Shown: positions 15,378 through 58,400 of the stretch, piece by piece | Position numbering within the stretch: the first letter of the stretch is position 1 | Layout: the number at the start of each line of letters is the position of its first letter | From: a virus | IMG/VR virus record: IMGVR_UViG_3300021957_000004 | DNA: 64,000 bases | Direction: 5' to 3' (one strand) | The notes under the pieces: generated by a model | What the model saw: the letters and a program-made list of their open reading frames with translations, nothing else | What the model was told of the DNA's origin: nothing | The model's database searches: none | Program-made: the position numbers and the translations under genes

Positions 15378-17225
15378 ATGAAATATATAACAACGATTTG
15401 GACAAGTATTGCACTTTGTATTGCACTTTTAGGCATAAGAGTTTTAGACCCAGTTTTAGTAGAACAATTAAGATTAAATAGTTTCGATCAATATATTCAG
15501 AGCTTACCCGACAAGGAATCCGATGTTGTTCTACTATCATTCGGAGAAGAAACTCTAGCTACATATGGCCAATACCCTTTTCCAAGACATACCTACGCAC
15601 AACTGATATCAGATCTAAGAGCTGCTAACGCTGGGATGATTGGGTTTACTATTATGTTTCCAGAAGCAGATAGGTTTGGTGGTGATGAGGTATTTATTTC
15701 CTGGGTAAACAATAACGGAGTCATTCTCGCGCAAGACGCGTCCTCTCGCGGGCGCTCGGATACGGCCCCGTACGTGGGTACGGCCACGCTCGGCGAGGGC
15801 GACGCGTACGACTTTGTTCCTAAATATAGTGGGTTAGTAACAAATATAAAAGAATTAGAAGACGCTGCATGGGGTGTAGGATTAATAAATGCAGGTCAAG
15901 AAGTAGATAATATAACAAGACGGATTCCTTTATTGTCCCAAATAAACGGACAGTTATATCCATCAATGCCTTTAGAAATCATAAGAGTAATACAAGATAA
16001 AAAGTCTTATTCACTAAAAGCAAACTATGATGGTATAGAAAATGTAATGATTCCACCATATGAACCTATTCAAACAGATTACAATAGTTCTATATGGTTA
16101 AATATGAATTATACTCATAAAGAATATGAATACGGTAAAGATGTATTACCTAATCTTCAAGGTCAAACAGTCTTGGTTGGTCTAACAGCAAGTGGCCTTG
16201 CTTCTCAAATACCAACTCCTCAAGGTTTGTTCTCTGCTCACCAATTGCAGGCGTCGGCACTTCAGACTGTGATAGATGGGAATTCGATATCTCGTCCTGG
16301 TTGGACATACTTAGTTGAATTGTTAGCTCTCGCCATAGGATCGGTTCTGATTGTTCTAGGGATATATCAGATGTCTGTCTTGACAGGTGCTGTATTCTCC
16401 GCCGTGATCGTGCTTGGCTACTCTGTATATGTTTGGTACGTCTGGACCTCAATGGGTATACTCCTTGATCTAACCTATCCTATAATAGTATATATACTTT
16501 CTTTTTCCTCAGCCGCATTTAATAATTTTTATATACAATTTAAATTAAGACAACAGATTAAAGGTCAATTCTCTACATACCTTTCTCCAGATATGGTTAA
16601 CATGCTAGTCAAAGATCCTAGCTTAATGAAGCTCGGTGGTGATAGAAAAGAAATGACATTCCTCTTTATGGATATATGTGGTTTTACCCCTATCTCGGAA
16701 TACTATAAGAACAATGATGATCCAGAAGGATTAGTAGAATTAGTCAATGAATTCCTAGATGCTATGACTACTATCATCTTATCCAACGGCGGAACCATCG
16801 ATAAATATATGGGTGACTGTATAATGGCATTTTGGAATGCTCCATTACCTTGTAAGAACCATGCTGAAATGGCAGTTAAGTCAGCAATAGAAATAGAAGA
16901 AAAAACAAATGAACTTAAAGAACTTTATAAAGAACGTGGCCTTCCCGATATTAACGTTGGCACTGGTGTTAACACCGGCGATTGCATTGTTGGTAATATG
17001 GGTAGTAAATCCAGATTTGATTATTCGGTCATTGGAGATGCAGTCAACCTTGCCGCCAGGCTCGAGGCTACCGCGGCTCGTCATGAGTATGTAGAATACA
17101 AAACCATTATATCATCCTTCACACAACAACTTCTTCCTCAGGGTTATGTCTCTCATAACATCGGAACCATCAAGGTTAAGGGTAAAGAAGAAGAAATCAC
17201 TATATATTCCCCTAAAAAGAAATAG
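15378..17225 (+). CDS. CHASE2-domain class III adenylate cyclase
   Basis: N-terminal TM, CHASE2-type region (GQYPFPRHTYAQLI, FPEADRFGGD, RRIPL), three TMs, FSTYLSP, FMDICGFT, IDKYMGDCIMAFW, RFDYSVIGDAVNLAARLE. Confidence 0.93.
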   Translation: MKYITTIWTSIALCIALLGIRVLDPVLVEQLRLNSFDQYIQSLPDKESDVVLLSFGEETLATYGQYPFPRHTYAQLISDLRAANAGMIGFTIMFPEADRFGGDEVFISWVNNNGVILAQDASSRGRSDTAPYVGTATLGEGDAYDFVPKYSGLVTNIKELEDAAWGVGLINAGQEVDNITRRIPLLSQINGQLYPSMPLEIIRVIQDKKSYSLKANYDGIENVMIPPYEPIQTDYNSSIWLNMNYTHKEYEYGKDVLPNLQGQTVLVGLTASGLASQIPTPQGLFSAHQLQASALQTVIDGNSISRPGWTYLVELLALAIGSVLIVLGIYQMSVLTGAVFSAVIVLGYSVYVWYVWTSMGILLDLTYPIIVYILSFSSAAFNNFYIQFKLRQQIKGQFSTYLSPDMVNMLVKDPSLMKLGGDRKEMTFLFMDICGFTPISEYYKNNDDPEGLVELVNEFLDAMTTIILSNGGTIDKYMGDCIMAFWNAPLPCKNHAEMAVKSAIEIEEKTNELKELYKERGLPDINVGTGVNTGDCIVGNMGSKSRFDYSVIGDAVNLAARLEATAARHEYVEYKTIISSFTQQLLPQGYVSHNIGTIKVKGKEEEITIYSPKKK

Positions 17226-17259
17226 TTTCGTCACAATCTCGTGAACTTTGCAAAAAAAG

Positions 17260-17289
17260 GTTTACATCCATGCTGTTTTACGGTATAAT
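17260..17289 (+). promoter_or_regulatory. T4-type early promoter
   Basis: GTTTACA-N17-TATAAT preceded by an A tract. Confidence 0.85.
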
Positions 17290-17318
17290 ACACCTATATT
17301 CAACAAAAAGGAGTTAAT

Positions 17319-17414
17319 ATGAAAACATTAAAAAAGCACGGATTACTAGATTCTGATTTTCTAGGGCCAATGATTACTTTGGCAGTATTTCTAATTATAG
17401 GAGAGATAGTATAA
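17319..17414 (+). CDS. Small membrane peptide (31 aa)
   Basis: MKTLKKHGLLDSDFLGPMITLAVFLIIGEIV; strong AAGGAG RBS; TAATG coupling to the next gene. Confidence 0.65.
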   Translation: MKTLKKHGLLDSDFLGPMITLAVFLIIGEIV

Positions 17415-17854
17415 TGAAAATAATATTTGACGTAGACGGAACACTTTTGGATATCGAACACAGAAGACATTTCGTAGAAGGTCCTAATAAAGACTGGGAT
17501 ACATTTATGGATCCAGCAGAAATGTTTAAGGACATTCCAAATCAACCAGTAGTTGATATAGCCATAGCTATGGAAAAAGCTGGACATGAAATAATCGTAG
17601 TTTCAGCAAGAAACGAAAGACATAGAACAGTTACAGAAAACAGTCTTAACAGTGCTGGTGTATTTAGATCAGCTCTTTTTCTAAGACCAGATGGTGACTT
17701 TAGAACAGATAGTGAATTTAAGCAAGAAGTTCTTGACAGTCTTATTGCTAACGATTGGAAACCTGATTTGGTCTTCGATGACAGAAATCAAGTGGTTAAC
17801 ATGTGGAGACAAAACGGTCTTACATGTGTACAAGTTGCAGAAGGTGACTTCTAA
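17414..17854 (+). CDS. HAD phosphatase (like the PseT 3'-phosphatase domain)
   Basis: IFDVDGT, VSAR, RPDGDFRTDSEFK, FDDRNQVVNMWR...QVAEGDF. Confidence 0.88.
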   Translation: MKIIFDVDGTLLDIEHRRHFVEGPNKDWDTFMDPAEMFKDIPNQPVVDIAIAMEKAGHEIIVVSARNERHRTVTENSLNSAGVFRSALFLRPDGDFRTDSEFKQEVLDSLIANDWKPDLVFDDRNQVVNMWRQNGLTCVQVAEGDF

Positions 17855-20498: not shown

Positions 20499-21680
20499 AT
20501 GGCACTTAAAAAATTAAATAAGAAAAGAATCTCGATGAGGAAAGATAGAGTTTCTTTAGATGCAAAGATGATGGGTCCAGAACCTCTCTTCACAGAAGAA
20601 GATGGACACATGGACATTGAAGAACAATACGATGGAAAGATTGGCCGAAAATGGGCTAAAGCTTCCAGATGGTATAATTACTTTTATCAAAACAAAGATT
20701 ACCTTCCACACGCAGTAGACTTTCTAAGAGATGTATATGGTTGGGATGATGATAAGTTAAAAGTCTTTTTACGTTTACCCGATTATACAATTAGAAGAGT
20801 CGGTGGGGTTGGCGTTATATGGTCAAGAGGTTACAAATATGATCCATTGTTTATCGAAGGCTTTAAACCTATTACTGATGAACTATATGAAAAAGCTACT
20901 TTATTAGAAGAGCAAAGAGTAGAAGCAGTAAAAGAAAAACCTAAAATGCCTAGTATACAAGAAAGAACTAGAGCAAAGGTATTAGAAACCATTTATATGG
21001 AATTTGATGTTAACGTAGTTGATGAATGGATGGAAGGTAATTATAAAGTTGACTTCGAAGCATTCTCTCTATTTAAAAACTTTGGATTAAAAGGTAATGC
21101 TATTTCTATATTCCAAGACATGATCGATGTAGAATATCTAGGACTAAAAGAAGCATACGATAAAACATGTCCTGATTGTGTAGAAGCTTATTCACACATT
21201 ACGAAAGGCAATAAAAAGAAAATGCTCAACGTATACGACAATATTTATTCTGACCTTGATAAACTTAAAGATAGCTTTAAAGCGACGCGTAAGGCGCGTG
21301 TACGTGTCCCTAGGAGCAACGAACAACAGGTATCTAAGTTAAACTATATGAAAGAAGACTTAGCAGCTAAGTTAACATCTATTAATCCTATCCTTATTCC
21401 AACCGCATCTAAGCTATATGTTTATAATGTTAAACAAGGTAAGCTTGCAGAATACACTGCATTAGATGCTAAGGGTTTCGAGATCGCTGGATCTACTATT
21501 AAGAACTATGATACTAAACTAAGTAAAATAACTAAGTTAAGAAAGCCAGAGGAAATACTACCGCTTATTCTAAACAAAACAGAAAAGCAAATACTAAAAG
21601 TATGGAAAGGATTAACAACAAAGATTTATGAACCAACAGGCCGAATCAACAAGGACTGTATTTTAATGAGAGTAATATAA
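20499..21680 (+). CDS. Conserved hypothetical protein upstream of gp33
   Basis: 393 aa; C-terminal KLRKPEE...GRINKDCILMRV; position before gp33. Confidence 0.75.
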   Translation: MALKKLNKKRISMRKDRVSLDAKMMGPEPLFTEEDGHMDIEEQYDGKIGRKWAKASRWYNYFYQNKDYLPHAVDFLRDVYGWDDDKLKVFLRLPDYTIRRVGGVGVIWSRGYKYDPLFIEGFKPITDELYEKATLLEEQRVEAVKEKPKMPSIQERTRAKVLETIYMEFDVNVVDEWMEGNYKVDFEAFSLFKNFGLKGNAISIFQDMIDVEYLGLKEAYDKTCPDCVEAYSHITKGNKKKMLNVYDNIYSDLDKLKDSFKATRKARVRVPRSNEQQVSKLNYMKEDLAAKLTSINPILIPTASKLYVYNVKQGKLAEYTALDAKGFEIAGSTIKNYDTKLSKITKLRKPEEILPLILNKTEKQILKVWKGLTTKIYEPTGRINKDCILMRVI

Positions 21681-30047: not shown

Positions 30048-31353
30048 TGTAAGCAGTAGATCCGTCGAAGGCGTTGATGGAAATATAACCCCTGATTCTT
30101 ATATATTGGAATCAGTTAAGTTCTTTCCTAACTCTGGTAAAAAAGAAATTGATATTAAATCTTTCGTACAACAACTAGAATTCTATGAAGATATTAATAC
30201 GCCTTTTATTGAAGGTATCATTTATATACAAGATGCTGCTAACTTCCTAGAAGAACAAAAAGTAAATGGTAATGAAAGATTAGAGGTTAAAGTAAAAAGA
30301 ACTCCTCTCGATGGTACACAAGAAAAAGTTTCTAAATTCGAATTAACGTTATATATTGCAGAAGTATTTAACTTTGTTCGAGAAGCACCAGGTAAACAAT
30401 TCTATAAATTTAGAGTCGTATCAGAACAGTTATATAATAACCAAGGTAAAACATTACAAAGATCTTTTCAAGGATCTATAGGTAAATTAGTAAAAGACAT
30501 TTGTAAGAAAGATCTTAAGATAAATGCTAAACTAAACCTAGACACTAAAGATATTATTAAAGGGGTTTATCCAACGCTAAGACCTATTCAAGCTATTAAT
30601 TGGTTATTGAAAAATGCATACGATAACGGTACACCTTATTATTTCTATGAAACATTAAAAGATGGATTACATTTTAATTCATTAGAGAATTTATACGAGC
30701 AAGAACAATATGAGGAATATGAATTCCTTCCTTATTTTAAACATGACATCGGAACAAGTGGTTCTTATAACGAAATAAGAAAAAGAATAATAGCTTTTGG
30801 TAGTGATTTAGGTATGGGTAAGTTAAATGATGTTGGTTCGGGTGCGTACGCGAGCACGCTCCATACGGTCGACCTCGCGAAGAAATCATATAAGAAAACA
30901 TTTTATAACTACGATTCAGCTAACCCAAAAAAATTAAACAAAAATAAACCATTTAGCGATAACACTAAAATCTTAGATAGAAACTTAGTTGATCTAAAAG
31001 AAGGAAAGAACTATTTTATTTCTTTAAATAGTGAAGCATTTCCTTTACACAAGAATTACCACGGTCCAGCTTATACCACAATATTAAAATCAGAATCACA
31101 TTTACAAACATTAGGATTTAATACCCACACGATAGCTTTACCAGGGGATTTTGGTTTATGTGTTGGATCTAAAATAGGTATTGTTACAATCAAGCCGACA
31201 ACAATAGAAGATGCAGATCAAGCCCCAGTTATGTTAGATAAATACACAGGTGGAAATTACTTAGTCACAAGAATAGTACATAAGTTTGATGACTTCTATA
31301 CACAAAAATTAACTATACAAAGAGATTCAAGTGGGGTAAGTGTAGATGCGTAA
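30040..31353 (+). CDS. Putative baseplate hub protein (gp27-like)
   Basis: 437 aa between gp53 and gp5; FYEDI, YYFYET, GNYLVTRIVHKF. Confidence 0.6.
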   Translation: MSSVSSRSVEGVDGNITPDSYILESVKFFPNSGKKEIDIKSFVQQLEFYEDINTPFIEGIIYIQDAANFLEEQKVNGNERLEVKVKRTPLDGTQEKVSKFELTLYIAEVFNFVREAPGKQFYKFRVVSEQLYNNQGKTLQRSFQGSIGKLVKDICKKDLKINAKLNLDTKDIIKGVYPTLRPIQAINWLLKNAYDNGTPYYFYETLKDGLHFNSLENLYEQEQYEEYEFLPYFKHDIGTSGSYNEIRKRIIAFGSDLGMGKLNDVGSGAYASTLHTVDLAKKSYKKTFYNYDSANPKKLNKNKPFSDNTKILDRNLVDLKEGKNYFISLNSEAFPLHKNYHGPAYTTILKSESHLQTLGFNTHTIALPGDFGLCVGSKIGIVTIKPTTIEDADQAPVMLDKYTGGNYLVTRIVHKFDDFYTQKLTIQRDSSGVSVDA

Positions 31354-38451: not shown

Positions 38452-41400
38452 ATGGCAACAAGCAAAGTTAAAAACTATAACATCCCACCATACTACGATG
38501 ATTTTGATGAAACAAAAAATTATCATAGGATCTTATTTAGACCAGGATATGCAGTACAAGCAAGAGAATTAACACAATTACAAACTGCTTTGCAATCTCA
38601 GATAGATCGATATGGTCAGTATGCATTTAAAGATGGTTCAAGGGTATTGGATGGTAAGGTTACAGTTAATACTAAGTATGACTTTATTAAACTTAAATCT
38701 TCTTTTGATCACAGCGTTGGAGGATCATTAAATACAGATACTTACTTATCAGACTTTTTAGGATCAACTATTACTGGTTATGCTAATGGTACAAACAAAG
38801 TTACCGCAAAGGTAATAGGATTTGAAACTAAAACAGATGCTTCTAATCCAAACACTTTATATATTTCATATGAAAGTAAAGGTGGAAATGATAGAGACGT
38901 TGGTACGTTCGTAGGTGATGAAGAAATTATTTCGGATGCAAATACAGTTTCAGGTAATGTTCGATACGGTGAATTAGTTGCTAATAGTGGCACACCAACA
39001 GGATATGGTTCAGCTGTTAACGTAGAGCAAGGCGTATACTTTATTGCAGGTACATTTGTTTATGTAGAAGCACAATCTTTAATTTTAGATAAGTATACAA
39101 ATACCCCAAGTTATATTGTTGGTTTATCAGTCACAGAGAATTTAGTTTCTTCTGATACTTCTGGCCATTCAGCATTGGTTGATAATGCTGCAGGTACTCC
39201 TAACTTTGCAGCTCCAGGCGCAAATAGATATCAGATCTCCACATCTTTAGTAAAAGAACCTTTAGCAATTGCTTCTAGATCAACAGGAAATTATATTCCA
39301 TTGGTCACAGTGGAATTAGGAAAAGTCCAATTCGATAAAACAGATAAGAATAATGACACTGCCCTTACTCGTAGATTAGCAAGACGTACTTTTGAAGAGT
39401 CTGGAAATTACGCAGTACAACCTTTTGAATTAAACATTAGAGAATATTTAAATGATGGTTCAAATAAAGGATATAAAACAAATACACAAATCGTAGCAGA
39501 CGGAGATGCAGGAAGTAATTCAGCTGGTACAACATTTGGTTCTTCTAGATTAGCAGTTGGTGTAGAACCATCAGTAGCTTACGTGAAAGGATTCAGGAAT
39601 GAAAACCTTGCAACTAAATATGTTAAAGTAGAAAAGCCAAGAGGAGCAGATGCTACTAATGATGTTAATAATGCTACAACACAAATTAGATTAGGAAATT
39701 ATATTAGATTAACTAATTCAACTATTTCTGGTATACCAGATATTAATAATTTCACGCCAATTACTTTACTGAATCAATCTGGTTCTAATATTGGAACTTG
39801 TCGTGCAAGAGGTATGGAACAACCTATAATAGGTACAAGTGGATATACAGCATTATATATTTTTGATATTGCTATGACTGGCGGAGCTACATTTAATCAG
39901 GTAAGAGCAGTTTCACAAGCAGGTACACCAGCATTTTCAGCACATTTAATTAATAAGACTGGATCAGTTGGTCCATCTCCACAACCATCTGCAAATTCAG
40001 ATGCATTAATATATGATTCTGGTTTTAGTTCATTAGTATATAAATTACCATACGATGCAATAAAATCACTTAACACAGCAAGTGAAGATACTATCTTTAG
40101 ATCAAAAGAATTGTTTACAGGAACTTCAGATGGATCAGGTAGTATAACATTCTCAGTATCGGGAACAAATACATTTGTTGATAGTGATGATAACTTAATT
40201 TTTGCAACAGGTGGAAACTTTGGACAACTAGCTAATTCCGGTGGAACGTATAACTATACTACATCGAACACAACTACACTTACAATTGGTGGACTTCCAA
40301 CAAGTGCTGTTATTAAAGTATTAGCAACAGTGCAAAGAAACGAAGCAGCTATTCCCAAGACAAGAGTACCCAATGCAACAAAGGCAGCTACAGTAAGTTC
40401 TGGTTATATTGGATTAGCAAAAGCAGATATCATTCGAATAGTTTCTATCACAGATGGAAACAGCCTAGATGTTACAGAAAGATTTTCATTAGATAACGGC
40501 CAAAGAGATAATTATTACGGAGTAGGTAAAGCAGTTCTTAAACCTAACTTCCCAACTCCAACCGGGACATGTACAGTCACATTTGATTATTATTCACACG
40601 GTGCAGGTAAATATTTCTCAGTAGATTCTTATCCAGCATTAGATTATAGTACTATACCAACTTTTACGGGTATTAATGGGGAATTACAACTAAGAGATTG
40701 TATTGACTTTAGACCAAGAAAAGATGATAACGATGCAAACTTTACTTCTTCTGGTTCAGCATTAACTGTTGCACCACATCCATCTTCTACATTGACTGCA
40801 GATATAACATACTATATGTCACGTATCGATAAGCTATATGTAAACAGAGAAGGCGAATTCTTAATAGAAAAAGGTGTTCCATCAGATATTCCTAGTTCAC
40901 CAGAAGTACCAGATGATGCAATGGCATTATATGACTTACAACTTAAGCCATACGTATTTTCTTTATCAGATATAAAACCTAGAATTATTGATAACAAACG
41001 TTATACAATGAGAGATATAGGTGGATTAGATAAACGTATTAAAAATTTAGAATATTATACTTCATTATCTTTGCTAGAACAAAGTGCAGCTGATGCTCAT
41101 ATAGTAGATGCAGCTGGATTAAGCAGATTCAAAAATGGATTCTTAGTAGATTCATTCCGTGGACATCAAGTTGGTGATACTGCAAATAATGATTATCAGG
41201 TATCGATTGATAAGAATAATGGATTACTTAGACCTAAGTTTGATGAAAGAAGTGTTAACCTAATTAGAAAAAGCGGTGATTCAGGTTCAGTAGTAATTAG
41301 TTCTTCATTAGCTCATTTACCTATAGCATCGAATACAACTATTATCGAACAACCGTACGCGAGCTCGTACGTAAACGTAAACCCGTATAACGTATTTTCC

Positions 41401-43733: not shown

Positions 43734-43952
43734 ATGCCAAGAAAGAAAAAAGAAAACCAAGTAGAAATAATTGATCAACCTGATCTAGTTAAAGATACTA
43801 CTTCACAAGCAGTTATAAATAATAACACATCTGCTTTATTAAACCGAAGAGCACAAATGAATGCTTTAAGAGTTAAAGATCAAGAGTTAGATGATATTAA
43901 AAAAGACATCAAAGAATTACAAGCTTTGGTTAAAAAATTAGGTAAAGGATAA
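43734..43952 (+). CDS. Hypothetical protein
   Basis: 72 aa; LVKDTTSQAVIN followed by a coiled coil. Confidence 0.7.
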   Translation: MPRKKKENQVEIIDQPDLVKDTTSQAVINNNTSALLNRRAQMNALRVKDQELDDIKKDIKELQALVKKLGKG

Positions 43953-46900
43953 TGGCCGAAAATAAAGAAACCAGAATATTAAAATCAAGTTCCATTGAAG
44001 AACTCAGACAAAAGTCTAATGAGATTTCCTTTGGATTAGGGGATAAAACTTTATTAGATTCAGATATATCTGATAAGGTATTTAGTCATACGGCAGCAGC
44101 TGGTGATTATTTAGTTTCTCCTGCAACTACAAGGTTTGAATATAAACCTGAAGAGACAATTGATAATACTGCAGGATATATCCTTTTAACTGGAAGTCCT
44201 ACGGTTGGTGCAGGTTTTTCAGCAGGTTCAGCGGTCACACAAAGTGGAGGATATTCCGCTACTATAGTAAGTGCTTCTACTAATAAAATTCTTGTAAAGA
44301 ACTCCAGTGGAACATTTAGTTCTAGTTCTACATTAACAGCTGGTTCAAGTACAATTGCAGGTTCTGCTATTCGAAGCTTAGTTGCTGAATCATACAAAAA
44401 AGCAGAAGTAATTGTAAAAGTAGGATCAACAGTTTATACCCAAGACTCTACCTCTACTACTGGATTTCATATACCAAATCATGCAGGATCAGTCACACTT
44501 ACTGGAAGTCCTGATGTATCGGATTTTGAAGAAGGCGCAGTTGCATATCAAGGATCAAACCTTGCAAATGCTACTTGGCAAGGAACAATTTTAGATTGTT
44601 CTTCTACATTATTAAGAACAAAAACAGTTTCTGGTTCATTTAGCGCATCAACACAAATAAAAGTTGATGGTGGTACAGATACAATTGCAGGATCAAACCA
44701 TGGCGATATAACAAACGAAGATGTAACATTTGGAAAACTTATTGAATTTAATACTCCGTTAAGTGTAAATGATGCAGTTGTAATTACATCAACAAATTTA
44801 GTAGATGCTATTAACGAAGTACAAGATGATATTGGTACAATCAGTTCATTAGCTTCTGGTATATCAAATAGAACAGACTTAGTAAATGCTACCAACTCTC
44901 TTAAAACAGAAATCGGTACAGCTTCTCTAGACACATCAGCAAATTCATTAAGAGGTGCAGTTAATGAACTACACACAGAAATAGTTTCTAATGATACAGA
45001 TATTGCTACAATCAATACTAAGCTTGGAACAATTACAGCAGGAGCATTTGGAACGACAGCATCGACAGTAAGTACTGCAATCGCAGAATTACATACTGAC
45101 GTAGATGCTAGATTGATGTTAACGAAAGGAACATCACAAACAATTAATGGTAATATATCATTTAGTAACGGTAAAACATTTACATTCCCATCGGGATCTA
45201 CACTAGATATAAGACAAGGTTCTATATTAACTGGATCTGGTGGTGGTGAATTAACATTTGATACCGCATTCTTAACCCTGATAGCTAATGATACAACAGC
45301 AGCTGTTAACCAATTTGGTCTGGAAGGACGAAGAGTTGGTTCAGGTAAAGATGTAAGAATACAATTTAATGAAACCCAAGTCACTGGAAACAAAGAAGCA
45401 AGAGCATGGCAGTTACAAGGATTAGATGATTCTAATGCTTCAAACACTGCCGATATAGTTACATTCTATAATGCTAAAGAATTAGTTTCCAGTAATACAG
45501 AAACAGGTATTGATGTAACATGGGATTCAACAAATCAAAACTTTGATTTTGCTTTATCAGCAGATCCAACTATTACATTGGCTGGCGATTTAGGTGGAAC
45601 AGCAACATTAACTAATTTAACAAGTGCTACATTAACAGCAACTATTCAGGCTGGTTCAGTTGAGAATAGTATGTTAGCTGGTGGTATTACTAATGCTAAT
45701 TTAGCTGGTAGTATTGCAAATGCTAAATTAGCTAATCCAAGTATTACAGTAAGTGATGGATCAAATACAAGTCCAGTTGCTTTAGGTGGAACATTAACAT
45801 TCGCAGGAACATCAGGCGAAGTAACGGTAGCAGAAAATGCTGGAACAGTTACAGTTGGATTACCTGATAACGTAACAGTTGGTGGTAACTTAACAATTAC
45901 TGGTAACTTAGATGTTAACGGAACACAAACAACTATTAATACATCAACATTAGAAATAGATGATACATTAGTATTAATGGGAGCTTCAAATTCAGAACCA
46001 ACAACAGGTGGTTTCGGTTTAGAAACAAGAAGCTTCACGGGCGTAGGCACGCACTCGAATAATGCAGCAAACGTAACTGGTTCACACTCTATTGTATATA
46101 ACTTTGCAACAGATAGATGGGAAGCAGATGGTTCATTAATATTATCAAGTGCTACCCAAGGTGCACCTAAAATTGAAGGACAGTTATTTGAATCCAATGA
46201 TAATTTACAATTCTCAGCTGGCTCAGGTTTAACCGAATCAGTTTCAGTATCAGGTCTTAACACAACCGTTACATATACAAACTCAGATAAAGGTTCTGAT
46301 GTAATGACCTTTAAAAATGTAGCTTCAAGTTCAGGTACTGCGGTTGCAGATAATAATACTGACACACTTACTATACTAGGTGGTAATGATTTATCAACAT
46401 CAGTAAGTGGAGACACATTAACGATTCAACATGATAACTCGGGCGCAAATGCAGGAAGTTATGGAGCACAACATACTGTTCCAAGCATTACAGTAGATGC
46501 AAGAGGTCACGTAACAAGTATTTCTAATAATAGTGCAATCACACTTTCTTCATTAGGTTATACAGGTCAAACAAACGCAAATAATTATTCATTTAATATT
46601 GACGGTGATAGTGGAACATCTAACGTTATATCCTCTGGAGAAACATTTGAGATAGAAGGTGGAACTCACTGTTCAACCGTAGTTGAATCTAACAAAATTA
46701 TTATTAATTCTGTAAATACCGAATATGACACATCCACTGGGTTAACAGATAATAACTTTACAAATGCATTAAAAACTAAACTAGATAATATAGCAGGCAG
46801 TGCGAATAACTATTCATTTTTAATTGGGTGTAATGGAACAAGTGGAACTTCTACAATAAACAATGGTAATACTTTAACTGTTAATGGTGCAGGAGCAACC

Positions 46901-47608
46901 AGTGTTACTAGATCGGGTGATGCATTCACTATTACTTCTACAAATAATACATATACAAGTTCAAGTTTTACTATTACCGATCTATCTGGATTCCCTGGAG
47001 GATCTACGGGATTCTTAAGAGCAGACGGATCATTCCAAACACCAAATTATCCAAGCGTACCAGGTGTTGGTGATAATGGATTAACACAAAAGAACTTTAC
47101 AACCACTTTATTTAATAAACTAAACGGTATAACTGGAGGAGCAACAGCAAATACAGGTACAGTTACAAATGTAACCGGATCAAATGGTATAAGTGTATCA
47201 AGTGGAACAACAACTCCTGGTATAAGCTTAGCTGGAACTTATTCTGGAACATGGGCAGTTTCGGGAGCGATTACAGCTACAGGTGATATTACATCATCCG
47301 TTTCTGATTCTCAATTAAAAGACAGAAAAGCTAATATTGATAATGCATTAGAAAAAGTAGAACAAATAAATGGATTCTATTTTAATTACAATGATACAGC
47401 AGTAGAACTACTAGATGCAGATAAAGAAGAGATGCAAGTTGGTGTATCAGCTCAGGAAATAGCTAAAGTAATGCCAGAGGTAGTTAAACCAGCACCAATA
47501 AATCCAGAGAAATATAAAACAGTACAATATGAAAGATTAGTACCGTTATTGATAGAAGCAATAAAAGAGTTAAATGCTGAAATCAAAGAACTAAAAAAGC
47601 ATAAATAA
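43952..47608 (+). CDS. Tail fibre protein with C-terminal intramolecular chaperone (S74-type)
   Basis: T/S/G-rich shaft; NLVDAINE coiled-coil repeats; SDSQLK...ALEKVEQINGFYF...GVSAQE...YERLVPLLIEAIKEL. Confidence 0.82.
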   Translation: MAENKETRILKSSSIEELRQKSNEISFGLGDKTLLDSDISDKVFSHTAAAGDYLVSPATTRFEYKPEETIDNTAGYILLTGSPTVGAGFSAGSAVTQSGGYSATIVSASTNKILVKNSSGTFSSSSTLTAGSSTIAGSAIRSLVAESYKKAEVIVKVGSTVYTQDSTSTTGFHIPNHAGSVTLTGSPDVSDFEEGAVAYQGSNLANATWQGTILDCSSTLLRTKTVSGSFSASTQIKVDGGTDTIAGSNHGDITNEDVTFGKLIEFNTPLSVNDAVVITSTNLVDAINEVQDDIGTISSLASGISNRTDLVNATNSLKTEIGTASLDTSANSLRGAVNELHTEIVSNDTDIATINTKLGTITAGAFGTTASTVSTAIAELHTDVDARLMLTKGTSQTINGNISFSNGKTFTFPSGSTLDIRQGSILTGSGGGELTFDTAFLTLIANDTTAAVNQFGLEGRRVGSGKDVRIQFNETQVTGNKEARAWQLQGLDDSNASNTADIVTFYNAKELVSSNTETGIDVTWDSTNQNFDFALSADPTITLAGDLGGTATLTNLTSATLTATIQAGSVENSMLAGGITNANLAGSIANAKLANPSITVSDGSNTSPVALGGTLTFAGTSGEVTVAENAGTVTVGLPDNVTVGGNLTITGNLDVNGTQTTINTSTLEIDDTLVLMGASNSEPTTGGFGLETRSFTGVGTHSNNAANVTGSHSIVYNFATDRWEADGSLILSSATQGAPKIEGQLFESNDNLQFSAGSGLTESVSVSGLNTTVTYTNSDKGSDVMTFKNVASSSGTAVADNNTDTLTILGGNDLSTSVSGDTLTIQHDNSGANAGSYGAQHTVPSITVDARGHVTSISNNSAITLSSLGYTGQTNANNYSFNIDGDSGTSNVISSGETFEIEGGTHCSTVVESNKIIINSVNTEYDTSTGLTDNNFTNALKTKLDNIAGSANNYSFLIGCNGTSGTSTINNGNTLTVNGAGATSVTRSGDAFTITSTNNTYTSSSFTITDLSGFPGGSTGFLRADGSFQTPNYPSVPGVGDNGLTQKNFTTTLFNKLNGITGGATANTGTVTNVTGSNGISVSSGTTTPGISLAGTYSGTWAVSGAITATGDITSSVSDSQLKDRKANIDNALEKVEQINGFYFNYNDTAVELLDADKEEMQVGVSAQEIAKVMPEVVKPAPINPEKYKTVQYERLVPLLIEAIKELNAEIKELKKHK

Positions 47609-48179: not shown

Positions 48180-49721
48180 ATGGCAGCTTTAACAAGAATT
48201 AAAATATTAAATACCGCGTCCACAAGTTCGGCGCCAACTAATATTTACACAGGGGAAATGGCGTATTCTTACGTTACTGGAACCCAAGCAAATAATGGAG
48301 ACAGGTTATACATTGGTACTGGTACTGAGAACCCATACGCTCCAAACGTAGACATTATCGGTGGTAAATACTTTACCGAAATGTTAAATCACGTACACGG
48401 TACGACAACAGCATCGAGTGCATTAATTACAGATGCTAACTCTCATGTTAGTGCTTTAAATACAGCAACATTTAAAGTTGCAGCTACAGGGTCATTAGGA
48501 TCTGCAGTTGGTATTACCAGTATCTTAGATGAAGATAATTTAGCTTCTGATAGTGCTACAGCACTTGCTACTCAACAGTCAATTAAGGCTTACGTTGATA
48601 CAATTGTAGATGCACAAGACTTAGATATTACTACGGATTCAGGTACAATAGCAATTGACCTTGATGATGAAACATTAACCATTTCAGGTGATACAGGTAT
48701 ATCAACAACTGCTAGTGGAAACGCTATTGAAATAGATCTAGATGATACAGCAGTAACAGCAGGATCTTACGGTTCACAAACAGCTATACCAACATTCACA
48801 GTTGATCAACAAGGTCGATTAACAGCTGCTTCAACAGTAACAGTTGCTACAGCATTAACAGTAGATGGTGATTCAGGAACAGGCGATGTATCCTTATTAA
48901 CAGATGATTTAAGAATCGTTGGTACAGCTCAAGAAGTTACAACAGCGGTAGCTAAATCAGGTACAGACGTAACGGTCACCGTTGGTTTACCAAATGACGT
49001 TACTATTGGATCAGATTTAACAGTTACAGATAACTTAGTTGTTAACGGGAACGTAACATTAGGTAATGCTACATCAGACACAGTTCAAACTGGCGGTAAT
49101 TTAACAGTTGGTGGTGATCTTACAGTTAACGGTACAACAACATCAGTTAACTCAACTACTACTACTTTAACAGATCCAGTTATTGAATTAGCTAAAGATA
49201 CTTCTGCAGCAGATGGTCTTGATCGTGGTGTTAGTTTCAAATGGCATAACGGTTCAGCAGTTAAAACAGGTTTCTTTGGATTTGATATACAAACTCAAAG
49301 GTTCTCCTTCACTAACGATGAAGATCTATCAGGTGGAGATAATGCTTCCTCACCATGGCATGATGCACAATTCGGTGGAGTTTACGCAGGTAATGTCCAA
49401 GTTGGTATTACAGGCGATAATGAGATCGATACAACCTCTGGCAATTTAACAATTGATTCAGCTGGTGGTACAACAACTATTGATGATATATTAACCGTAA
49501 CAGGTGCAGCATCAGCAGCTAGTTTAACACTTACAACAGATTTAGCAGTAGCACATGGTGGTACTGGATTAAGTTCATTCACTGGTAAAGGTGTATTTAC
49601 ATCTAACTCTGGTGGTACAGCAATTGATTTTGTTACATCTTCTGCAGAAGGTGCAATAATGCAGTTTAATAGTTCTGGTGTACCTATTGCTTCTGTCATC
49701 GTAGATGGTGGAACATACTAA
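48180..49721 (+). CDS. Tail fibre-like structural protein
   Basis: GEMAYS N-terminal module, LATQQSIKAYVD, AGSYGS..AIPTFTVDQQGRLT, GDLTVNGTTT, terminal DGGTY. Confidence 0.75.
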   Translation: MAALTRIKILNTASTSSAPTNIYTGEMAYSYVTGTQANNGDRLYIGTGTENPYAPNVDIIGGKYFTEMLNHVHGTTTASSALITDANSHVSALNTATFKVAATGSLGSAVGITSILDEDNLASDSATALATQQSIKAYVDTIVDAQDLDITTDSGTIAIDLDDETLTISGDTGISTTASGNAIEIDLDDTAVTAGSYGSQTAIPTFTVDQQGRLTAASTVTVATALTVDGDSGTGDVSLLTDDLRIVGTAQEVTTAVAKSGTDVTVTVGLPNDVTIGSDLTVTDNLVVNGNVTLGNATSDTVQTGGNLTVGGDLTVNGTTTSVNSTTTTLTDPVIELAKDTSAADGLDRGVSFKWHNGSAVKTGFFGFDIQTQRFSFTNDEDLSGGDNASSPWHDAQFGGVYAGNVQVGITGDNEIDTTSGNLTIDSAGGTTTIDDILTVTGAASAASLTLTTDLAVAHGGTGLSSFTGKGVFTSNSGGTAIDFVTSSAEGAIMQFNSSGVPIASVIVDGGTY

Positions 49722-49810: not shown

Positions 49811-52800
49811 TTGGCACGTAAAACGAACATACAACTGAGGCGTTCAGCAACAGCTGGAGGCATTCCAACTACAAGTAATCTAGACTTAGGTGAATTAGCG
49901 CTTAATACCTACGACGGTAAAGCGTATATGAAGACCACGGAGTCTTCTCTTGATAGTATAATTCAGATTGGCTCCGCAACAGATACTTATCATAAGATAA
50001 GAAAAGGTAATACAATAACTATTACCGTCACCGTTGCTACAAAAACAACATCGCACCCACATCATGGATCTGGTTCAAGCTCAGCATACTTTTTAAATGG
50101 TATTGAATCACCTCATTTCCATATGGTTCCTGGGAACACATATAAGTTTGATCAAGCAGATAGTTCCAACTCTGGTCATCCATTAAGATTCTATTATGAA
50201 GCAAATAAATCAACTGCTTATAGTACAGGTATTACGACATCTGGAACGCCAGGAAGTTCAGGCGCGCATACAACTATTGTACCTACTGATGCTACTCCAA
50301 TGGTATTACATTACCAATGTTCAGCACATGGATATATGGGTGGTAGATCAGATTATGCTACAAGAAACTTTACTGGATTTAATACAGGTGATTTAGCAGA
50401 AGGGACAAATCTATATTACACAGACGCTAGAGCAAGAGCCTCAATTAGTGTAAGTGGAGATTTATCCTATAATAGTTCAACAGGTGTTATATCTTTTACA
50501 GAAACAACAGCAGCTACAACTCGTGCATTAATATCAGTCACAGATGCTGGTGGAGATGGTTCATTAGCATATAATAACACCACGGGCGTGATCACGTACA
50601 CGGGTCCGAGCGCGAGCGAGGTGCGAGCGCACATCTCCGCGGGTACGGGCGTAACAGTTTCTAATGGTGCTATATCAATAGGACAAGCAGTTGCAACAAC
50701 TTCTGATGTAACCTTTAATGATTTACAAGTAGATGGTAATACAATCATCACTGGTAACTTAACGGTTAATGGAACAAGTACAACTTTAAATGTTGCAACA
50801 TTAGATGTAGAAGATTTAAATATAACAGTTGGTAAAGCAGCAACAACAAGTTCAGCAACTAACGGCGCAGGACTTACATTTGGTGCTTGGTCTTCAGGTA
50901 CTATACCTACATTTACATGGGATCATGCTAACCAAAGATTTGCAGCTAACTATGCTATTGCAGCTAATATTACAGGTGCATTAACAGGTAATGCAGATAC
51001 AGCTACTACATTAGCTACAGCAAGAACTATATCAGGTGTATCATTTAATGGTTCAGCTAATATAACACTAAACACTTCTGCAATAACAGAAAATACTAAT
51101 CTATACTATACCAATGCTCGAGCAGATGCTAGAATTGCAGCGGCAAGTTTACTAGATTTAAGTGATGTTGGTTCTGACGGAACAAACGGTCAAGTACTAA
51201 CAACAGATGGTAGTGGTGGATTTACATTTACAACAGTAAGTGGTGGCGGTTCAGCAATAACTGTACAAGAAGAAGGTTCATCCTTAGCAACAGCAGCAGC
51301 AACAATTAACTTTGTGGGTGCTGGGGTAACAGCAACAGGTACTGGTGCGACTAAAACAATTACTATTCCTGGCACAGGTACAGTATCAGAAGCATTTAAA
51401 ACAATTTCAGTTTCAGGCCAATCAGACGTCGTAGCAGATACAGCAACAGATACATTAACATTAGTAGCTGGTTCTAATATGACACTTACTACTAGTGCTA
51501 GTGGAGATACAGTTACATTTGCATCTTCAGGAAGTGGTGGTGGTGGTTCAGCCTCAGCTTCAGACATAAGAACAAAATTTGTTTATACTACATCATCTAG
51601 TACAACCGCATTCAGTGGATCAGATGATAATTCAGCAACATTAAGTTATACATTAGGTGCAGTGGATGTTTACCTAAATGGTGTATTACAAAAGCTTACA
51701 ACAGATTACGCCGAAACTAACACATCAACTATAACATTTGTTAATGCTATAGCATCAGGTAACGTTGTAGAAATCATAGCTTATTATAGGACTATTGGTA
51801 CAGGCAATTCTGTAGTGGATCAATTTACAGGTAATGGTTCAGCAACAGATTATACAGTTACAACTGCACCAGTTTCAGAAAACAATCTATTAGTTTATAT
51901 CGATGGTGTATACCAGCAGAAAACAGATTACACTGTATCTGGTACAACACTAGCATTTGATACAGCACCAGCTAGTGGAGCAGTTATAGAAACTGTAGCG
52001 ATGGTTGGTGCTATTACAGAACAAGCTAGCTTAACATTAACAGGTGCATTAACATCTGTAAGTGCAGATTTATCTGGTGACTTAACAGTTGCAGGTAATA
52101 TATCATTAGATGGTTCAAATAAAGAATTAAGATTTTATGAAGGCTCAAATTATGTAGGGTTCGAAGCTCCAGCATTAAGTGCTGATAAAATTTGGGTATT
52201 ACCAGCAGCAGACGGCACAGCAGGATATGCACTTAAGACAGATGGTTCTGGAAATCTAAGTTGGGGATTAGCTGGTGGTAATGCATTCGAAACAATTTCA
52301 GTATCAGGTCAAAGTGACGTTGTTGCTGATAGTTCATCTGATACATTAACTTTAGCTGCTGGAACAGGTCTTGCTATTACAACAGCAGCCGGTTCAGATA
52401 CAATTACATTTACAAATACCGCAGTTGGTGCTAACGCATTTGGAACAATCGCAGTTAGTGGACAATCAAATGTTGTTGCAGATTCAACTGCAGATACATT
52501 AACATTAGCGGCTGGGGCAGGTATAGTATTAACAACTGCAGCAGGTTCAGACACAGTTACAATAGCAGGTGGATCAGGCTCAGTATTCACAACAGATTTA
52601 TTTACAGCTTCAGGTTCACAGAATGCTTATACACTTTCAGTAGCTCCGGCTTCAGAAGATGAGATCATGGCTTTTGTGGAAGGTGTATATCAGAATAAAA
52701 ATTCATACGCATTAAGTGGTACAACATTAACCTTTGATGCTGGTATAACAAACGGTCAAGAAGTTGTTGTACATCATATTGGTGCAGGCATAGTTGGAAC

Positions 52801-53425
52801 AAGTCCAAACGTTGAAACGTTTACAGGAAATGGTTCAGCTTATTCATACACACTAAGTGTTGCACCACCTAATGAAAACTATTTACAAGTATTCTGGGAT
52901 GGAGTATATCAGAACCATGATCAATACACAGTAAGTGGAACAACTTTAGACTTTGGTTCAGGTAACGTTCCGGCTAATGCAACAGCAATTGAAGTTGTTT
53001 ACCCAAGTATAAATGGTATAGGAACACCAAGTGATGCATCAGTCACACCAGCTAAATTAAGCACAGGCGCACCATCATGGGATGGTAATTCTAATTTCAT
53101 AGTTGGTAATTCTTATGTAAGATCTGATAGTACTTCTGTTAGTGCAACCAGCGCAACGACAGTGGCTTCACATGCAGTTGCTACATATAGAACAGTTAAA
53201 TATCAAGTACAAATAACACAGGGTTCAGCATATCATTCAACAGAATTAAATGCAATACATGATGGAACAACTGTATACTTAACAGAGTATGGAACAATCT
53301 TTAGTGGTTCTTCTCTTGCAACATTCGATGCAACAATTAGTTCAGGTAATATGTTATTACAGGTAACAATGGGGAGTTCTTCAAGTTCAACAATTAAAGT
53401 AATATCAAGTGCAATAAGTGTATAA
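49811..53425 (+). CDS. Modular tail fibre protein (TTG start)
   Basis: IQLRRS...LGELALNTYDG N-terminus, cupredoxin-like domain, NLYYT.ARA repeats, AF.TI.VSGQS.VVAD repeats, four V(Y/F).(D/N/E)GV.Q domains; AGGAG RBS. Confidence 0.8.
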   Translation: MARKTNIQLRRSATAGGIPTTSNLDLGELALNTYDGKAYMKTTESSLDSIIQIGSATDTYHKIRKGNTITITVTVATKTTSHPHHGSGSSSAYFLNGIESPHFHMVPGNTYKFDQADSSNSGHPLRFYYEANKSTAYSTGITTSGTPGSSGAHTTIVPTDATPMVLHYQCSAHGYMGGRSDYATRNFTGFNTGDLAEGTNLYYTDARARASISVSGDLSYNSSTGVISFTETTAATTRALISVTDAGGDGSLAYNNTTGVITYTGPSASEVRAHISAGTGVTVSNGAISIGQAVATTSDVTFNDLQVDGNTIITGNLTVNGTSTTLNVATLDVEDLNITVGKAATTSSATNGAGLTFGAWSSGTIPTFTWDHANQRFAANYAIAANITGALTGNADTATTLATARTISGVSFNGSANITLNTSAITENTNLYYTNARADARIAAASLLDLSDVGSDGTNGQVLTTDGSGGFTFTTVSGGGSAITVQEEGSSLATAAATINFVGAGVTATGTGATKTITIPGTGTVSEAFKTISVSGQSDVVADTATDTLTLVAGSNMTLTTSASGDTVTFASSGSGGGGSASASDIRTKFVYTTSSSTTAFSGSDDNSATLSYTLGAVDVYLNGVLQKLTTDYAETNTSTITFVNAIASGNVVEIIAYYRTIGTGNSVVDQFTGNGSATDYTVTTAPVSENNLLVYIDGVYQQKTDYTVSGTTLAFDTAPASGAVIETVAMVGAITEQASLTLTGALTSVSADLSGDLTVAGNISLDGSNKELRFYEGSNYVGFEAPALSADKIWVLPAADGTAGYALKTDGSGNLSWGLAGGNAFETISVSGQSDVVADSSSDTLTLAAGTGLAITTAAGSDTITFTNTAVGANAFGTIAVSGQSNVVADSTADTLTLAAGAGIVLTTAAGSDTVTIAGGSGSVFTTDLFTASGSQNAYTLSVAPASEDEIMAFVEGVYQNKNSYALSGTTLTFDAGITNGQEVVVHHIGAGIVGTSPNVETFTGNGSAYSYTLSVAPPNENYLQVFWDGVYQNHDQYTVSGTTLDFGSGNVPANATAIEVVYPSINGIGTPSDASVTPAKLSTGAPSWDGNSNFIVGNSYVRSDSTSVSATSATTVASHAVATYRTVKYQVQITQGSAYHSTELNAIHDGTTVYLTEYGTIFSGSSLATFDATISSGNMLLQVTMGSSSSSTIKVISSAISV

Positions 53426-56161: not shown

Positions 56162-56162
56162 T

Positions 56163-58400
56163 ATGGCAAATACAAAGATAACAAGTAACGTAATAGCTAA
56201 TGATGCTGTTACGGTAGACATGATTACTGATGCAGCGGTTACAGCTGATAAACTTCATGCGACTTTAGATTTATCTGGTAAAACTTTAACATTACCAAGT
56301 GCACAAGCAGCAACAACACAATCTGCATCAGACAATACAACAAAAGTAGCTACAACAGCATATGTTACTACAGCAATAGCAAATCTAAGTGATAGTGCTC
56401 CAGCGGCATTAAATACATTAAATGAAATCGCAGCAGCACTTGGTGATGATGCTAACTATGCTGCAACAACAACAGCAGCGATCGCAACTAAATTACCTTT
56501 AGCAGGTGGTACAATGACTGGTGCCATAGCAATGGGTACTTCCAAGATTACAGGTCTTGGAGATCCTACTGCAAATCAAGATGCAGGAACTAAGTTATAC
56601 ATTGATACAGCAGATGCTTTAAAATTAAATCTATCAGGCGGAACGCTTACAGGTGATTTAATATTAAATACAACAACTGCTTTAAAAATACCAGCTGGTA
56701 CAACAGCTCAAAGACCAAGCGCAGCAACAGGGCAATTAAGATGGAATACATCTGATGGCGCTTTAGAAGTTTATAACGGATCCGCATGGACAGCAGTTGG
56801 AACAGGTTCTTCTAATAAAATCCTAGATACATTTACAGGAGATGGAAGTACAACAGCTTATACTCTAAGCGTTACTCCAGCAAACGAAGATGCTCTTATA
56901 GTATTCATAGATGGTGTATACCAAGAAAAAGGTGATTATGCATTATCAAACGCAGTACTTACATTAGATACAGCTCCGGCTTCTGGTGAAAAACTTGCAG
57001 TACATATAACTACTGCTTCAGTCCACGATGGAACATCTGCAGTTAATCAACAATTTACAGCTACTGCAGGACAAACAGCATTTACATTAAGTGCAGATCC
57101 TAAATCAGAAAACAATACACAGGTTTATATTAACGGTGTATATCAACAAAAGACAGATTACACAGTAAGTGGAACAACTCTGACTTTTGATACAGGATTA
57201 ACAGTTGGTGATGTAGTTGAAGTAAATATGTTTACAGTTACTACGCTCGGAAATACAGATACAGTAAGTGAAGGCACAAGTAACCTTTATCATACGACCG
57301 CACGTGCACGAGGCGCGATTTCTGTAAGTGGTAATGCATTATCATACAATAGTTCAACAGGTGTTATAACATCAGCTTATGAAGAAAGTCCAACATTTAC
57401 AGGCGATGTTGTATTTAATAGCACAGGTTCTATAAAAATTCCTATAGGAACAACTGCTCAAAGACCTGCTTCTCCTGCGAATGGCATGGTTCGTTACAAT
57501 ACAACTGAATCAGAGTACGAGGTATATAAAGGCAACGCATGGTTTATTCTTGATTCTAGTGGCTACACTTATACTGCTGATTTTCTTGTAATTGCAGGTG
57601 GCGGTGGTGGTAGTGGAACTAGTTTAGCAGGTGGTGGTGGAGCTGGTGGTTATAGGACATCAGCAGGAACATCAGGTGGCGGTGCTTCTGCTGAGTCAGC
57701 TTTAACTTTTGTTGGTGGAACAACTTATACAATTACTGTTGGAGCAGGTGGTTCAGGTGGGGCAAGTGGAAGCAATGGTGGTAACTCATTAATCTCAGGC
57801 TCAGGCTTAGCTACAATTACATCTATTGGCGGTGGTAGTGGTAGCAATAATGCCAGTGCAGGTGCAAGTGGTGGCTCAGGTGGTGGTTCAGGTAGAGACT
57901 CGGTAAATACAGGTGGTGCAGGAACATCAGGACAGGGGTTTGCAGGTGGTACTGGTGGCGGTAGCTCAAATAGTTCTTCAGCTTCAGGCGGTGGTGGAGC
58001 AGGTGCAGTTGGTGCAAATGCAGCGTCTCCGTGGACAGGTGGAAATGGCGGTGTAGGAGTTGCATCTACAATTACTGGTTCATCAGTTTATAGAGCAGGT
58101 GGCGGTGGTGGTGCAGCATATGCTGGACTAGGCAGAGATGGCGGTACAGGTGGAAATGGTGGTGGTGGAAATGGTTCAGGAAATTCAGCAACTAGTGCAA
58201 CCGCAGGAACAGCTAACACAGGTGGCGGTGGTGGTGGCGGTATGTCTAACAGTAGTGGTGGCTCAGGTGGTTCAGGTGTGGTTATACTTAGAGTAGCTAC
58301 ATCAAAATATTCAGGCACAACTACTGGCTCACCAACAGTAACAACAAGTGGTAGCAATACAATCATTACCTTTAATTCAAGTGGGAGCTATACAGCATGA
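56163..58400 (+). CDS. Tail fibre protein with glycine-rich C-terminal domain
   Basis: LNTLNEIAAALGDD, IP.GTTAQRP modules, IAGGGGG...GGSGVVILR glycine-rich domain. Confidence 0.82.
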   Translation: MANTKITSNVIANDAVTVDMITDAAVTADKLHATLDLSGKTLTLPSAQAATTQSASDNTTKVATTAYVTTAIANLSDSAPAALNTLNEIAAALGDDANYAATTTAAIATKLPLAGGTMTGAIAMGTSKITGLGDPTANQDAGTKLYIDTADALKLNLSGGTLTGDLILNTTTALKIPAGTTAQRPSAATGQLRWNTSDGALEVYNGSAWTAVGTGSSNKILDTFTGDGSTTAYTLSVTPANEDALIVFIDGVYQEKGDYALSNAVLTLDTAPASGEKLAVHITTASVHDGTSAVNQQFTATAGQTAFTLSADPKSENNTQVYINGVYQQKTDYTVSGTTLTFDTGLTVGDVVEVNMFTVTTLGNTDTVSEGTSNLYHTTARARGAISVSGNALSYNSSTGVITSAYEESPTFTGDVVFNSTGSIKIPIGTTAQRPASPANGMVRYNTTESEYEVYKGNAWFILDSSGYTYTADFLVIAGGGGGSGTSLAGGGGAGGYRTSAGTSGGGASAESALTFVGGTTYTITVGAGGSGGASGSNGGNSLISGSGLATITSIGGGSGSNNASAGASGGSGGGSGRDSVNTGGAGTSGQGFAGGTGGGSSNSSSASGGGGAGAVGANAASPWTGGNGGVGVASTITGSSVYRAGGGGGAAYAGLGRDGGTGGNGGGGNGSGNSATSATAGTANTGGGGGGGMSNSSGGSGGSGVVILRVATSKYSGTTTGSPTVTTSGSNTIITFNSSGSYTA

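Follow-up and report, generated by a model that had tools for sequence, protein, structure and literature searches.

The window analysed here, the whole 64,000-nucleotide (nt) stretch of IMG/VR virus record IMGVR_UViG_3300021957_000004, is AT-rich phage DNA (36% G+C, or 35.9% to one decimal; CpG observed/expected 0.64) in which unrelated genes carry short, CpG-dense patches of coding sequence, hereafter islands. It encodes T4-like replication and recombination functions (a SegE-like GIY-YIG endonuclease, an ATP-dependent DNA ligase and RNase H, and further a PD-(D/E)XK nuclease, a PNKP-type phosphatase, gp59 and gp32). The window also has a gene for a CHASE2 adenylate/guanylate cyclase and, over a long stretch, genes for the baseplate and tail fibres; no tRNA genes were found in it. 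The nearest relatives in culture, with proteins 30-38% identical, are the Pelagibacter phages HTVC008M and Mosig and the Methylophilales phage Melnitz; GenBank holds no near-identical phage. Gene order matches that of HTVC008M, cyclase included, and this synteny fits assignment of the window to a pelagimyophage-like, SAR11-type myovirus (for the pelagimyophage group, see PMC7029224). The relatives used for comparison are IMG/VR contigs and loci, coded G### and L###, respectively. CpG depletion differs widely among them: the observed/expected ratio is 0.33 in G005 (L274-L279) and 0.19 in L381, and the window stands at 0.64, so CpG avoidance too varies as a trait within this phage group.

CpG density beyond codon usage

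Every patch lies in frame inside a long open reading frame (ORF) and is written in GCG, ACG, TCG, CCG, CTC and CGC codons, each of which accounts for 2-6% of its amino acid's usage. The islands and patches of the window are the following:

Island A, 15716..15812: 19-20 CpG, about 72-74% GC; CHASE2-adenylate/guanylate cyclase gene 15378-17225, amino acids about 113-145
Weak island A2, 17054..17080: 5 CpG; near the 3' end of the cyclase gene; absent from the original prediction; one informative relative
Island B, 21282..21321: 6-7 CpG; gene for a 393-amino-acid protein of unknown function, 20499-21680, phrog_11903
Island C, 30838..30882: 9 CpG; tail protein gene 30040-31353, phrog_350
Island D, 41346..41394: 8-9 CpG, only about 50% GC; VrlC-like/DUF4815 structural gene 38452-43725
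Island E, 46036..46057: 4 CpG, weak alone; tail-fibre gene with a Peptidase_S74 end, 43952-47608
Patch F, 48390..48406: 3 CpG, weak alone; defined by the motif discussed below, contains CACGTACACG
Island G, 50581..50651: 13-14 CpG, about 71% GC; tail-fibre gene for 1204 amino acids, 49811-53425, on the conserved TGVITYTGPSASEVRAHISAGTGV motif
Island H, 57294..57317: 6 CpG; tail-fibre gene for 745 amino acids, 56163-58400, on NLYHTTARARGAIS

The original prediction, an earlier reading of the same DNA from its letters alone, had listed all of these except A2 as CpG-rich islands scattered over unrelated genes of an AT-rich genome. All of the listed islands were recovered at their positions, E and F being the weak ones, and the distribution over unrelated genes was borne out. 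The G+C contents that it had counted by hand are close to those measured (74% with 19 CpG for 15726-15812; 71% with 13 CpG for 50581-50650). Assembly artefact is ruled out, since the same islands recur in independent IMG/VR assemblies from many samples.

The islands also stand far above the codon-shuffled expectation against which it had been proposed to set them. The window has 7 patches with at least 6 CpG per 30 nt; 300 rounds of permuting synonymous codons within each gene gave an expectation of 0.16 and never more than 2. CpG reaches 76-89% of the synonymous maximum (19/25 in A, 9/11 in C, 8/9 in D and 14/16 in G), while ordinary codon usage on these four peptides would yield 1-3 CpG.

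Several features of codon choice reveal what this signal tracks. Codons that are able to form a CpG by a silent third base do so in 76% of cases in islands against 11% in the background, and where CpG is impossible, G or C occupies 59% of third positions in islands against 19% in the background. Within islands, C endings are used in 76% of cases before a G and in 44% otherwise (p=0.0125), the corresponding background values being 17% and 19%; NCG and NCC codons stand at 36:9 in islands and at 252:326 in the background; and the rarest non-CpG codons, CTG and CCC, and the very rare CGG are unused. The dependence of C endings on the next base, the excess of NCG over NCC and the absence of CTG, CCC and CGG together indicate a force at the dinucleotide level that operates across codon boundaries; it thus acts on the nucleic acid, whether DNA or RNA, rather than through codon rarity. 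Common A- or T-ending Gly and Val codons stay in islands where G or C would add no CpG.

The original prediction had likewise placed the signal at the level of nucleic acid and not of protein, citing the CpG-rich LYHTTARAR of island H at 57.3 kilobases (kb) and its CpG-poor paralogue LYYTDARAR at 50.4 kb. The pair is as described, the paralogous site being AT-rich in the window and occupied by a CpG patch in G014, and the inference is upheld by the cross-codon preference for CpG together with the silent-site retention and directional gain reported in the next section, which also mark the signal as non-neutral.

The six strongest islands lie on peptides at the 93rd-100th percentile of CpG potential, which explains their location only as a permissive factor. 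Peptide conservation gives a mixed account: the island peptides rank at conservation percentiles of 99 (G), 96 (C), 80 (A2), 73 (D) and 47 (A), and the islands found in nrdA and nrdB of relatives coincide with catalytic motifs.

The word CGTACRCG had been proposed as a recognition site shared by the islands. All of its copies are present as described, as are the 10-mer CACGTACACG, with three copies in three reading frames or strands, and CGTACGCGAGC, identical at 30845 and 41354. The excess of the word holds window-wide, with 6 copies against 0.30 expected from dinucleotide shuffles and 0.37 from codon shuffles, but is largely lost once the composition of the islands is taken into account. Dinucleotide shuffles of the islands alone yield 1.05 copies, and re-encoding of the island peptides with island codon usage yields 2.8-3.5 (P=0.03-0.08). 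For the 10-mer, the same re-encoding predicts about 1.0-1.1 copies. The copies come from coding of the types NCG-TAC-G.. (x-Tyr-x), CAC-GTA-CAC-G (His-Val-His) and CGT-GTA-CGT-G (Arg-Val-Arg). They show no orientation bias (four on the plus and two on the minus strand), and islands are found in genes of either orientation.

A sequence-specific protein for packaging, partition, recombination or restriction-modification, acting at CGTACRCG sites distributed along the genome, would be in keeping with the window-wide excess, with the confinement of CGTACG to islands (7 of 7 copies in 72.5 kb) and with the further CGTACRCG copies in nrdA and in the independent islands of relatives. The confinement of CGTACG is, however, due to the scarcity of CpG elsewhere; the word is missing from several strong islands (H, E, A2 and many private ones); and an unbiased ranking of 5- to 7-mers over 21 independent islands of the window and its relatives revealed no dominant word. 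The top words of that ranking, CGAGC in nine islands, CGCGAG in seven, and GTACACG and TCGACCG in four each, have modest counts for the number of words tested. Chi, DNA-uptake sequences and parS resemble the islands in having many copies in coding DNA at synonymous positions, but they are defined words with orientation bias, whereas the islands share no word beyond what CpG-rich coding provides. We conclude that CpG density is what is primary in the islands and that CGTACRCG arises mostly as a side product of coding saturated with CpG; a dedicated CGTACRCG-binding system is very improbable. Neither the breakpoint test described below nor the genes within reach, which yielded no trans-acting factor, lent support to a role in packaging, recombination or genome organisation.

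Patches arise in place within one narrow lineage and are then held

The islands are not insertions, for distant homologues have identical or similar peptides in the corresponding places, written in ordinary AT-rich codons. Such peptides include APYVGTA..G.GDP of the cyclase, QPY.S...VNPYNVF.W of the VrlC-like protein and TGVITYTGPSASEVRAHISAGTG of the tail fibre. Comparison of relatives in which an island is present with those in which it is absent revealed 106 substitutions from A or T to G or C (weak to strong, W>S) against 9 in the reverse direction within islands, at 38% divergence, as opposed to 391 and 402 in the 300-nt flanks, at 22% divergence. Some conservative amino-acid changes inside islands also run toward GC-rich codons. 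A- and T-ending codons are kept and the GC-richer relatives differ in sequence at the Island A site, which argues for evolution in situ and not for import from GC-rich donors.

Once formed, the islands are retained. By overall nucleotide identity, CpG-dense segments are less conserved on average, because the distant relatives lack islands; retention was tested instead on third positions within island-bearing relatives. On this measure G and C third positions are retained in 72-92% of cases inside islands against 27-49% elsewhere in the gene (A, 92% against 49%; B, 72% against 44%; C, 89% against 27%). In relatives whose overall identity is 75-81%, Island A takes first to fourth place when exact matches are ordered by length. 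Gain, loss and edge extension of islands occur over 10-25% nucleotide divergence. Together these results show that the patches arise in place by directional, accelerated substitution and are then held.

The patches are also shown to be restricted to one narrow lineage of pelagimyophage-like contigs. Among the AT-rich loci fetched, strong patches occur at 1.23 per 10 kb in the lineage against 0.18 in the other 1.7 megabases, and most of the residual patches in the latter belong to lineage members that the alignment filter had missed. HTVC008M (147 kb) has one run of Gly codons and nothing comparable to the islands, and five long related contigs of 35-39% GC have 0-1 strong patches per 100-139 kb. 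The G+C content of the lineage, 35.9%, is not above that of island-lacking relatives (33-39%). The presence of islands at homologous positions in relatives, on which the original prediction had staked part of its case, thus holds among close relatives and fails among more distant ones.

The individual islands differ in their distribution. Island A occurs in close relatives only (L014-L018, L094-L100, G001, G011 and G014), its 5' extent varying among G001, G011 and G014, and more distant cyclase homologues write its peptide in AT-rich codons. Island B is common to all contigs that cover it (G001, G011, G013 and G014), as is Island E (G011-G014). Island C is present in G011-G013 and missing in G014, and its core, GCG TAC GCG AGC/GCC ACG CTY CAY, is preserved in 12 relatives at about 70-75% amino-acid identity. 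Island D is found in the window and G012/L104 only, is partial in G014, and is missing in L105/L106 and in more distant homologues with the same peptide; conservative F>Y and I>V changes in this island each produce a CpG. Patch F has no CpG in any relative covering the site, and its standing as a genuine island is doubtful.

Island G is present in G012/L184, mostly present in L188/G014, represented by its 3' part only in L191, and missing from L185-L187, L189, L190, L192 and G016. In a tree of the flanks its carriers fall in two non-sister clades with identical free codon choices, a distribution that could reflect patch-limited transfer or repeated loss.

Islands are also found beyond the window and in sites where the window has none. 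Contigs that are 99% and 81-85% identical to the left end of the window extend upstream of it into nrdA and nrdB, where the nrdA islands lie on or near the active-site motif CSQGGVRGGAAT and the nrdB island lies on FACSWAFAE; one more island lies further upstream, in L383. Each relative harbors private islands at sites with 1-2 CpG in the window, some of them in minus-strand genes.

Selection, biased repair and other candidate explanations

Our favoured explanation, held tentatively and with a probability of roughly 0.4, is that the patches are cis-acting elements defined by CpG and G+C density, maintained by selection and read by a lineage-specific factor. Such elements would most likely act at the level of DNA and not of RNA, the driving force would be selection and not biased repair, and the lineage would possess a reader or modifier of its own. 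According to this proposal, a putative trans-acting factor that is missing in relatives, a protein reading or modifying CpG-dense DNA, would make dense CpG clusters advantageous. Selection would then write clusters where the peptide tolerates them, that is, where it is rich in Ala, Ser, Thr, Pro, Arg and Gly or has Tyr, Asp, Asn or His before a codon beginning with G. The clusters would be built up by W>S changes that are silent or, in a few cases, conservative, and would subsequently be held. Candidate roles for them include binding platforms, marks of maximal modified-cytosine density, and local barriers of duplex stability or shape. We rank selection as likeliest because the patches are tiny, sharply bounded, near-saturated and long held, and because the G+C content of the lineage is not raised.

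Vertebrate CpG islands offer an analogy, and only that, as CpG-density elements in a CpG-depleted genome that are read by composition-sensing proteins; they span hundreds of bases, lie at promoters and are kept by lack of methylation, whereas the phage patches measure 20-95 nt and lie inside coding sequence. A bolder version of the proposal, that the patches represent a new type of phage cis-element, "CpG-density marks" coded in composition that some factor found only in this lineage reads or creates, is in our estimation unlikely. One candidate for that factor would be an extra cytosine-hypermodification step, by which a patch would become a site of maximal modified-base density on both strands, and the marks would serve as recognition or protection points on the genome.

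A number of points weigh against selection for a reader-dependent element. The trans-acting factor was not found among the genes within reach, and in the lack of a shared motif a reader would have to sense composition or shape, which is unusual for phage DNA-binding proteins. Islands occupy only 6 of 225 equally permissive sites, and their spacing looks irregular, with no positional logic that favours a function. Clustered W>S substitution with turnover is also a classic footprint of GC-biased gene conversion (gBGC), and the occurrence of Island G in two non-sister clades is accounted for equally well by patch-limited conversion and by retention with losses.

The main rival is a drive by CpG- or GC-biased gene conversion, or by some other biased repair, in which heteroduplexes formed during co-infection are repaired to G:C, especially at T:G or A:C mismatches in CpG context, such that short patches would be driven stepwise to CpG saturation and pass from genome to genome while serving no function. 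We consider it the strongest of the alternatives and still rather unlikely. T4-like phages recombine heavily, and this rival would account for the clustered, accelerated W>S substitution (106:9), for island edges that are gained, lost and extended among relatives, for the identical free codon choices of Island G in non-sister clades, for the lack of a motif, and for the conservative amino-acid changes toward GC-rich codons. The clusters attributed to gBGC in mammals are likewise short, accelerated and almost wholly W>S with lineage-specific turnover, and the process is debated in prokaryotes (PMC6867656, PMC12290510). The islands, however, are 10-50 times shorter than those clusters, and patches of 20-95 nt with sharp edges and near-maximal CpG are unlike known conversion tracts. 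No association with breakpoints was detected: the step in identity to relatives at A, B and C lies at mean percentiles of 0.35-0.46, showing no breakpoint enrichment in a test of low power. Most heteroduplexes should form genome-wide between close relatives, and yet the G+C content of the lineage is not raised; G and C states are fixed at the same sites over about 20% divergence; and the large excess of NCG over NCC would require an additional, CpG-context-specific enzyme, of which none was seen.

Two further explanations, both improbable in our view, take the coding context as their starting point. In one, conserved coding sequence is rewritten to confer immunity to sequence-specific nucleases, homing endonucleases or host defences; homing endonucleases read the minor groove, where no silent change other than W>S is visible. 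Free-standing endonucleases are known to spare their own genome through target polymorphisms and to favour conserved sequence, and the polymorphisms at such targets, as for T4 MobE and nrdB, resemble the islands in being silent changes in conserved coding of the nrdA/nrdB type with variable presence (PMC2790892, PMC2988022). Consistent with immunity, several islands lie on ultra-conserved endonuclease-target motifs (the active site CSQGGVRGGAAT of NrdA, FACSWAFAE at the iron site of NrdB, and conserved tail-fibre motifs), patch size fits a nuclease footprint, and presence differs among close relatives. Against it, no island of the window abuts an endonuclease gene, and the sole such gene within reach, the SegE-like gene at 355-777, is present in 8 of 8 relatives, three of which lack the nrdB island, so that the two do not co-vary. 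Endonucleases are common in T4-like phages, yet other T4-like lineages lack such patches; a few substitutions would be enough for escape, leaving the uniformly CpG-ward saturation and the preference for NCG over NCC unexplained; and the Island A peptide is only averagely conserved (47th percentile). In the other explanation, the patches are clusters of rare codons that slow the ribosome locally for co-translational folding or assembly. Such clusters, whose position-specific conservation is established (Chaney et al. 2017, PMC5438181), share with the islands in-frame runs of rare codons (here at 2-6% usage) in unrelated genes of many classes, homologous positions, and the lack of a motif or RNA structure, and islands A, B, C and E do lie at conserved positions among close homologues, more distant ones lacking them. 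A pausing function does not explain, however, why CTG, CGG and CCC are unused and NCG:NCC stands at 36:9 despite equal rarity, why the use of C endings varies with the base that opens the following codon, so that the islands follow CpG across codon boundaries, or why Tyr, Asp, Asn and His switch to NNC codons, for which no slowing is expected. The trait belongs to the lineage as a whole and is not specific to a protein or protein family, and homologues in sister lineages, with the same peptides, fold without patches. Least credible of all are readings of the patches as structured RNA, as short imports from GC-rich donors or as artefacts of assembly, for which the sharp compositional edges might be cited. 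Eight island stretches, folded on both strands, did no better than shuffled sequences (z -1.0 to +1.2) and the islands have no match in Rfam, on which grounds structured RNA is rejected; import or insertion is rejected on the same peptide occupying the same place in distant homologues, on the A- and T-ending codons kept, and on the different sequence of GC-richer relatives at Island A. In the features tested, then, the patches differ from rare-codon clusters, from gBGC-type clusters and from endonuclease target polymorphisms.

An alternating, Z-DNA-type purine-pyrimidine structure was also considered and rejected: the longest alternating runs sum to 101, where the codon null gives 98 (P=0.38), with a weak location effect in 5 of 11 islands.

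Searches of the accessible literature returned no description of CpG-rich synonymous patches in phages, and the pelagimyophage paper (PMC7029224) is silent on them. The silent sites of phages are usually taken as free to drift, and here a lineage of very abundant ocean phages has repeatedly rewritten short pieces of essential and structural genes toward maximal CpG and then kept the result. If selection is responsible, phage DNA would bear a hitherto unrecognised signal that is read by composition and may be linked to base modification; if biased repair is responsible, the patches would provide an unusually clear case of a conversion-type drive shaping a virus genome at a resolution of 20-95 nt. 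Under either cause the patches are lineage markers and call for caution in codon-usage analyses and in analyses of nonsynonymous to synonymous substitution ratios (dN/dS). They are tractable for long-read modification calling and for population-genetic tests in existing marine metagenomes.

Candidate genes and minor observations

The SegE-like GIY-YIG gene (window 355-777; L319 8902-9324) is located between nrdB and the ligase gene, 0.6 kb downstream of nrdB. Its product is 90-94% identical at the amino-acid level in most close relatives, 70% in one, and 56-59% in three more distant contigs, which suggests a gene that is fixed, possibly domesticated, and not a sporadic mobile element. As the cause of the nrdB island it was rejected for want of co-variation over the eight relatives. 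In some relatives an extra ORF lies between nrdB and the SegE-like gene (L326 8292-8735; L329 8295-8735); it encodes a cytochrome c-like protein of 146-147 amino acids and is missing at this place in the window's own population (L319).

Widespread in related marine myovirus contigs is an operon encoding an SNase-like nuclease, a DUF1599/Nmad1-like protein, a thymidylate synthase (TS) homologue and a dCMP deaminase (L266 443-2447, in G002; also L351-L382). The TS homologue has Asp at the position of ThyA Asn177 (RSNDV....ND), and the operon, which has no AsnB-like gene, is a candidate dCMP-modifying pathway. No match to the Asn_synthase family was found in nine related contigs, none of which covers the relevant region of the lineage. 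The TS/dCMP deaminase operon is present at 32 loci, 27 of them with a GC fraction of at most 0.39, and these AT-rich loci hold no strong islands. The Asp-type TS homologue with its dCMP deaminase was accordingly rejected as the cause of the islands, being common in island-lacking relatives.

The ligase (1208-2338), the PNKP-type phosphatase-domain protein (17414-17854) and a 249-amino-acid ORF (8422-9171) are among the window genes with no tblastn match in six island-lacking relatives, of which HTVC008M is complete and the other five are incomplete, making this absence weak evidence. The ligase and the phosphatase may represent lineage-specific functions in nick or end repair. The 249-amino-acid ORF has no Pfam or PHROG family, and a protein atlas places it only in unnamed viral clusters.

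The cyclase gene that contains Island A (15378-17225) encodes a phage CHASE2 sensor fused to an adenylate/guanylate cyclase domain, for which at least 597 homologue candidates were confirmed in IMG/VR contigs. A private CpG island at L099 8201-8250 (also L100 6349-6398) holds TGTTTCGCGTGAAACG, which we take to be two mismatches removed from the Bacillus-type parS consensus, probably by chance. Lastly, the 9-mer TTTCCTGGG, coding for Phe/Ile-Ser-Trp, occurs at 15696-15710, just upstream of Island A, and again at 41395-41410, just downstream of Island D.

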